Positions 934 to 1,124 of a stretch of 3,658 nucleotides of DNA are shown here, in pieces. The position numbers and the translations under genes were made by a program. The stretch comes from Escherichia coli (lineage in GTDB: Bacteria; Pseudomonadota; Gammaproteobacteria; Enterobacterales; Enterobacteriaceae), in NCBI RefSeq assembly GCF_003334815.1, contig NZ_QOWO01000081.1; one strand, written 5' to 3'. Below the pieces are notes generated by a model. That model was given only the letters and a program-made list of their open reading frames with translations, did no database searches and had not been told where the DNA came from. Position 1 is the first letter of the stretch, and each line of letters begins with the position of its first letter.

Positions 934-978
934 GTTCTGATTGTAGCCTCTTCCTTGCAGAGAGGTCAAAGTTTATGA
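919..978 (+). CDS. Short leader reading frame (19 codons, MKFLAVLIVASSLQRGQSL) overlapping the toxin start; analogue of mok/pndC
   Basis: ATG at 919 is preceded by GAGG (910-913). Its TGA stop (976-978) overlaps the toxin ATG (975-977), the coupling arrangement expected for hok-family loci. Confidence 0.45.
   Translation: MKFLAVLIVASSLQRGQSL
940..969 (-). promoter_or_regulatory. Candidate promoter for the Sok-like antisense RNA
   Basis: Read on the - strand: TTGACC (+ coordinates 964-969), an 18-nt spacer, then TACAAT (+ coordinates 940-945). It lies inside the leader ORF and points toward the toxin mRNA 5' region. Confidence 0.45.
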
Positions 979-1124
979 CGAAATATGCCCTTATCGGGTT
1001 GATCGCTGTGTGCGCCACGGTGTTGTGTTTTTCACTGATATTCAGGGAACGGTTATGTGAGCTGAATATTCACAGGGGAAATACAGTGGTGCAGGTAACT
1101 CTGGCCTACGAAGCACGGAAGTAA
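975..1124 (+). CDS. srnB: Hok/Gef-family type I toxin (49 aa): MTKYALIGLIAVCATVLCFSLIFRERLCELNIHRGNTVVQVTLAYEARK
   Basis: Translated by hand from ATG 975 to TAA 1122-1124. It has a hydrophobic N-terminal transmembrane helix and the conserved C-terminal part I recall for SrnB (F plasmid) and PndA. AGAGG lies about 9 nt upstream. Absent from the ORF track because of its short length. Confidence 0.85.
   Translation: MTKYALIGLIAVCATVLCFSLIFRERLCELNIHRGNTVVQVTLAYEARK

Follow-up and report, generated by a model that had tools for sequence, protein, structure and literature searches.

The stretch of Escherichia coli DNA analyzed here (3,658 nucleotides, referred to as the window) carries a small toxin gene at positions 975..1124 on the plus strand, supported by the ORF list, a Pfam match, alignment, and RNA folding. 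Its ORF starts with ATG, encodes 49 amino acids (MTKYALIGLIAVCATVLCFSLIFRERLCELNIHRGNTVVQVTLAYEARK), and ends with a TAA stop codon at 1122-1124, exactly as originally predicted. By itself, an ORF of 49 codons is little evidence, because 59 ORFs of 20 amino acids or more occur in the window. The peptide, however, aligned with the Hok/Gef profile of Pfam (HOK_GEF, PF01848) from end to end (model positions 1-42 of 42, E = 1.4e-9, 37.8 bits), which bears out the family assignment. A hydropathy estimate placed one strongly hydrophobic stretch of 19 residues at positions 5-23 (mean Kyte-Doolittle value of 2.69), in line with the single transmembrane helix that had been proposed, and the tail from R24 on is polar, with values near zero or negative. 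When the variable columns of 10 related alleles were assigned to codons, 10 positions of the CDS were synonymous and two were non-synonymous. The full Pfam match, the hydrophobic segment with its polar tail, and the mostly synonymous variation argue together that the toxin CDS is a real gene. Moreover, the peptide has the hallmarks of the Hok/Gef family: a cysteine in the helix, an R-x-x-L-C motif after the helix, and a C-terminal A-Y-E. In the alignment, C13, T15, L17, R24, L27, C28, A44, Y45, and E46 are invariant across the SrnB, Pnd-type, Vibrio, and Hok sequences, so that the C-terminal motif (A44-Y45-E46) is kept and the similarity to the family is significant.

The original prediction had assigned the peptide to the SrnB/PndA branch of the family, and the comparison with known systems went beyond mere membership of that branch. 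Plasmid F (NC_002483) carries a CDS annotated as "Hok/Gef family protein" at 2926-3075, directly upstream of RepFIC repA2, whose product is identical to the window toxin at 48 of 49 residues (98%), the sole change being L10I. Judged by sequence, this CDS is the srnB position of F, and the window toxin is SrnB, in an allele with I10. In older literature, SrnB has 68 aa, presumably as the product of the F srnB frame extended from an upstream ATG, and an upstream extension of the srnB frame to 68 codons was found in the F sequence. Identity to the window peptide was 54% for a homologue on a Vibrio plasmid, 44-48% for the Pnd-type homologues of IncI-gamma and IncK plasmids, and only 31% for the R1-type Hok peptide. 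Against the NCBIfam HokA equivalog (NF007290) and the Hok subfamily model (NF007279), the peptide scored 36.6 and 31.3 bits, under the curated cut-offs of 89 and 73, respectively, and we rejected a HokA or R1-Hok subfamily label on these grounds. The scores fit the generic RefSeq name "Hok/Gef family protein"; the RefSeq name of R1-type Hok is "type I toxin-antitoxin system Hok family toxin." A sequence search of the PDB with the peptide returned nothing relevant, its sole match being an oxidoreductase (E = 0.064).

We scanned positions 700-1420 for promoters and terminators. Only two sigma-70-like promoters were found in this range, with 0.6 expected by chance, and they are convergent, as is typical of hok/sok. 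The predicted promoter of the toxin mRNA (TAGTCA-16-TATTAT, with a TG extended -10) lies at 796..823 on the plus strand; the predicted SrnC/Sok-like promoter (TTGACC-18-TACAAT, 10 of 12 consensus positions) runs from 969 to 940 on the minus strand. The columns of both promoters are invariant among the window, F, pSFO157, and pRM055_1. The toxin mRNA is predicted to start near 830, and this promoter-derived start coincides with the first position of a match to Rfam family RF01794 (830-985, plus strand), which covers the full model and scores 83.8 bits, well over the gathering score of 59.

Folding and the Rfam match point to a full-length srnB-type mRNA of ∼400 nt (predicted at 830..1226, plus strand). 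The fold of RNA 830-1232 had an energy of -176.7 kcal/mol (z = -6.4 against dinucleotide shuffles). In both the minimum-energy and the centroid folds, a 9-bp closure joins a tac-like 5′ element, GGGUGUCUG (830..838, plus strand), to an fbi-like 3′ element, CAGACACCC (1181..1189, plus strand), which lies 57-65 nt past the stop codon. Comparison with homologues revealed four other loci, those of F, R621a, an IncK plasmid, and R1-type Hok, with a 5′-3′ closure equally far from the stop codon. The closing sequences are GGGCGC/GCGCCC in the Pnd-type loci and GGCGCUU/AAGCGCC in the Hok-type locus, and in silico, these relatives show covariation from U-A to C-G at two pairs. The Vibrio homologue (L005), which had no Rfam match at the gathering score, was left out of the RNA comparison. 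In the predicted full-length fold, the Shine-Dalgarno (SD) sequence of the toxin, AGAGAGG at 959-965, pairs with 1102-1109.

Two further hairpins lie at the 3′ side of the transcript. A GC-rich hairpin immediately after the stop codon (1129..1159, plus strand), present in the folds and with an equivalent at 767-795 of an R1-type Hok locus (L008), is the positional counterpart of the last stem-loop in the processed hok mRNA, whose role in R1 has been described (PMC9841398). Downstream of the fbi-like element, the fold contains a terminal hairpin, GCCGGUCCC-GCCC-GGGGCCGGC (1205..1226, plus strand), which may mark the end of transcription; the 3′ end of the mRNA may lie just past 1189 or past this hairpin. 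The terminator scan did not call the hairpin, which has no T run directly after it, and in 700-1420 it called no site where the mRNA or the antisense RNA would be expected to end. The sole terminator-like site of that scan, a stem with TTGTGTTTTT at 1004-1022, falls inside the toxin CDS and is probably a chance match, because 0.8 such sites are expected. When the RNA was shortened at its 3′ end, 830-838 refolded with the sequence immediately downstream into a local hairpin, resembling the local 5′ hairpin of the nascent hok transcript (PMC9841398). In the minimum-energy fold of the shortened mRNA, the leader SD was still in a hairpin, and the open, translatable form of R1 was not reproduced; since the fold gave no open conformation, the activation step is one that we infer.

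Upstream of the toxin, the ORF list contains a leader ORF of the mok/srnB′ kind with 19 codons (MKFLAVLIVASSLQRGQSL, 919..978, plus strand), whose TGA stop overlaps the ATG of the toxin (ATGA, 975-978). Its SD, GAGG at 910-913, lies 5 nt upstream of the AUG at 919-921. According to the pair list of the full-length fold, this ribosome binding site (RBS) sits in a hairpin at 875..920 (plus strand), the antisense target region, in which a ucb-like anti-SD segment (875-889) pairs with both the GAGG and the AUG; the hairpin is also part of the Rfam consensus structure. We only infer that leader and toxin are coupled by termination-reinitiation, because this out-of-frame upstream ORF (uORF) differs from the in-frame leader of F.

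On the minus strand, an antisense RNA of ∼65 nt is predicted from 933 to ∼866, its start placed from the -10 box and its ends estimated with the help of the fold. The fold of 933 to 862 had an energy of -27.9 kcal/mol (z = -3.6) and consists of a hairpin (920 to 875) followed by UUUCU, and the predicted RNA has complementarity to both the SD and the AUG of the leader. Rfam returned no minus-strand family for this RNA, its "sok" family having matched the plus strand, so the antisense gene is predicted from the promoter scan and folding. RF01794, named "sok antitoxin," fell on the toxin-coding strand in every locus with a match, from the 5′ end of the mRNA to the start codon of the toxin (window, 830-985; L003, 2780-2936; L004, 428-585; L006, 429-585 and 1149-1306; L008, 432-603). 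This family therefore marks the leader of the toxin mRNA and not the antisense strand.

As originally predicted, the toxin gene lies between accessory ORFs and a replicon. Upstream, a DUF2726 gene, of which the window has the 3′ part, is followed by a hypothetical ORF at 388-696; downstream is an IncFII replicon (1408..2827, plus strand; NCBIfam and Rfam), with repA2/copB (1408-1656, plus strand) starting 284 nt after the toxin stop codon. The gene for the CopA antisense RNA (1885 to 1794, minus strand) matched Rfam with 101.9 bits, and repA2/copB, the tap leader peptide (1903-1977, plus strand), and repA1 (1958-2827, plus strand) scored 136, 60.6, and 619 bits, respectively, all above the curated NCBIfam cut-offs. 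The window is confirmed as an IncFII-type basic replicon, and this replicon is physically linked to an SrnB-type module, for which post-segregational killing by the window allele would be expected from F srnB. The order srnB-repA2 is also annotated in F, pSFO157, pRM055_1, and p2010C_5028-3.

Two other observations concern this setting. At 720-765, after the ORF at 388-696, a near-perfect GC-rich hairpin is followed by TTTTTGT and probably acts as a terminator, keeping transcription from upstream out of the toxin promoter; weak matches to Rfam microRNA families at the same place were rejected as spurious, caused by this terminator hairpin. Compared with p2010C_5028-3, the window is a mosaic, with 99.3% identity over 1-1475 and 97.3% over 1700-3658. 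The segment between them (1476-1699, the 3′ part of repA2/copB and the spacer) had no megablast alignment to that plasmid, which suggests that the two differ in their copB allele.

The locus is very probably an intact type I toxin-antitoxin locus of the srnB/srnC type (hok/sok family) that serves the adjacent IncFII replicon, with a proposed mechanism based on its anatomy and on studies of hok/sok in R1 and srnB in F. The promoter at 796-823 would give rise to a stable mRNA of ∼400 nt that is translationally silent: 830-838 would be locked to 1181-1189, the leader RBS buried by 875-889, and the toxin RBS paired with 1102-1109. Slow trimming of the 3′ end would remove the 3′ lock and allow the 5′ region to refold. 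As long as the plasmid is present, a short and unstable antisense RNA from the promoter at 969 to 940 would pair with the leader start, block translation of the leader, and trigger cleavage of the duplex. In a plasmid-free cell, the antisense RNA would decay first, and the 19-codon leader ORF would be translated. Given the overlap of the leader stop with the toxin ATG (ATGA), ribosomes would open the toxin start site or re-initiate there, and the 49-aa single-helix peptide would damage the inner membrane, so that the plasmid-free cell dies.

This scheme follows what has been established for hok/sok, whose mechanism and tac, fbi, and ucb elements have been described (PMC9841398). In R1, the mRNA closed by tac and fbi is inert, is processed slowly at its 3′ end, and then refolds; the leader ORF is kept silent by the antisense RNA, the resulting duplex is cut by RNase III, and toxin is made only after the labile antisense RNA has been lost (PMC9841398, PMC4147584). 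The predicted features of the window match this scheme element for element. The srnB-srnC locus of F is a hok/sok homologue, with an arrangement, killing, and regulation consistent with hok/sok (PMC4147584), and SrnB is bacteriolytic, with killing delayed when SrnC is present (PMC12390103).

The closest counterpart is srnB/srnC of F (with srnB′), which also lies directly upstream of repA2/copB, beside RepFIC. Its promoter, 5′ leader, antisense promoter, fbi-like element, and 3′ hairpins are nearly identical to those of the window, and over the aligned ∼710 nt (700-1410), the mean column identity among the four plasmids was 95%. The flanks upstream of ∼800, in contrast, are unrelated. Moreover, the window leader is 1 nt shorter than that of F and has six substitutions in 926-936, giving a 19-codon uORF in place of the 68-codon SrnB′. 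With hok/sok/mok of R1, the window shares the design of a single-helix toxin, an mRNA of ∼400 nt with paired 5′ and 3′ ends, a leader start targeted by antisense RNA, an antisense promoter facing that of the toxin, and a hairpin past the stop codon. The two differ in the tac and fbi sequences, compared here with those of the Hok-type locus, and in the leader: mok of R1 overlaps the hok coding sequence (PMC9841398), and in the Hok locus L008 the leader ATG shares the frame of hok, whereas the window leader ends at the toxin start.

The pndA/pndB/pndC-type loci of IncI and IncK plasmids (R621a and pL889_NDM9) share their Pfam family and their Rfam leader family (134 and 123 bits) with the window locus, and their 5′-3′ closure is as far from the stop codon as that of the window. 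Their leader ORF, in contrast, has 67 codons and overlaps, out of frame, almost all of the toxin gene, and neither locus is adjacent to an IncFII replicon. We take the R621a peptide to be PndA of R483.

An active locus of this kind could owe its main benefit to something other than addiction, either abortive infection and phage exclusion or a stress or persistence response to a halt in transcription. Phage exclusion by hok/sok is known, and a stable toxin mRNA paired with a labile antisense RNA would respond to any shut-off of transcription. Induction by rifampicin is named in the title of Nielsen et al. (1991), a paper cited by PMC4147584; the same title also has F srnB mediating plasmid maintenance. 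Moreover, of the 2,220 places that match 830-1232 in complete E. coli genomes, 2,189 are on plasmids, and the synteny with an F-like replication region is consistent. On this balance, we consider a main role outside addiction unlikely, although the two roles are not mutually exclusive.

The locus could instead be a relic that no longer kills, as is the case for several chromosomal hok loci, with a sequence that hitch-hikes with the replicon. Chromosomal hok/sok loci of E. coli failed in post-segregational killing (bioRxiv 10.1101/2025.08.07.668861), and the window's leader frame is unlike that of the characterized F locus. Even so, the sampled plasmids have at least four short-uORF alleles, in each of which the frame of 19 codons and the ATGA overlap are preserved, and the variable positions of the CDS are 10 synonymous to two non-synonymous. 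With the promoters, RBSs, 5′-3′ closure, toxin ORF, and family-invariant residues also intact and in register, a relic seems decidedly improbable. That the toxin ORF is a chance frame in the non-coding leader or spacer of the replicon, as the 59 ORFs of the window might suggest, is refuted by the full-model Pfam match, the 98% identity to SrnB with its family-invariant residues, and the synonymous-dominated variation, and we give this practically no credence.

Within the srnB/srnC-type addiction locus that we favor, the leader is polymorphic. The leader of F, WG1, and pTHO-010-3 is one nucleotide longer, which brings its ATG into frame with srnB, for 68 codons in all, whereas further 56-nt leader alleles in other plasmids (encoding MKYLALLIV... 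and MKYVALLIV...) keep the short frame. Among the sampled plasmids, we counted at least four short-frame alleles, in which the 19-codon frame and the ATGA overlap are kept, and two in-frame alleles. The exact 91-nt segment of the window type is rare, with 24 of 1,678 matching E. coli records at ≥95% identity, and F-like segments dominate (1,561 records at ≥95% identity). The short-uORF class as a whole is not rare, because the shorter 91-nt span occurs in 8 of 29 full-length rows of an evenly spaced sample, a rough estimate.

The variation is concentrated where the antisense RNA is predicted to begin. In an alignment of the ∼400-nt mRNA, 8 of 34 variable columns fell within 926-936, where the predicted antisense RNA has its first nucleotides, a clustering that is biased, since the loci had been chosen by a search on that very segment. 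It is conceivable, if doubtful, that these changes represent srnB/srnC "specificity alleles," by which co-resident or competing F-like plasmids would not neutralize each other's killer mRNA, and that the 19-codon uORF with its ATGA overlap would be a functionally distinct mode of coupling and not a neutral variant. Leader architecture also varies across the family, from the 67-codon out-of-frame ORF of the Pnd type to the in-frame leader of the Hok locus L008. Such variation is in accord with the view in the literature that what counts is the translation of mok as such and not its product (PMC9841398). Polymorphism of the leader and of the antisense 5′ end, in an otherwise very conserved locus, bears on how strictly coupling of the mok type is required.

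We then asked how widespread and how well annotated the locus is. DNA matching 830-1232 was present in 2,007 of 5,426 complete E. coli genomes (∼37%), and more than 5,000 PLSDB plasmids matched 700-1300. The original prediction that the gene would be easy to miss in annotation did not hold: the NCBI pipeline names the exact 150-nt CDS "Hok/Gef family protein" in nearly all of the matches listed (RefSeq accessions WP_064764570.1, the exact window peptide, and WP_001312851.1), and current annotation therefore does not overlook the toxin gene. It is the RNA part that usually goes unannotated, namely the antisense gene, the leader ORF, and the mRNA elements. The locus has long been known as the srnB/srnC addiction module, and it lies here where it is usually found, beside an IncFII replicon. 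It accounts for some of the stability with which this IncFII-type plasmid is inherited, insofar as the window allele kills as F srnB does, and its proper annotation label is srnB/srnC, type I toxin-antitoxin system; beyond that, it is of little importance.

The comparison loci yielded two minor observations. The IncK2/Z plasmid pL889_NDM9 (L006) has two Hok-family loci ∼700 nt apart (429-735 and 1149-1332), a pair that resembles the tandem Hok-family "islets" described in bioRxiv 10.1101/2025.08.07.668861. In pMTY1886_IncFII (L008), the RefSeq Hok CDS spans 658-759 (33 codons) and the full R1-type frame of 52 aa starts at 601, so the RefSeq start appears to lie too far downstream.
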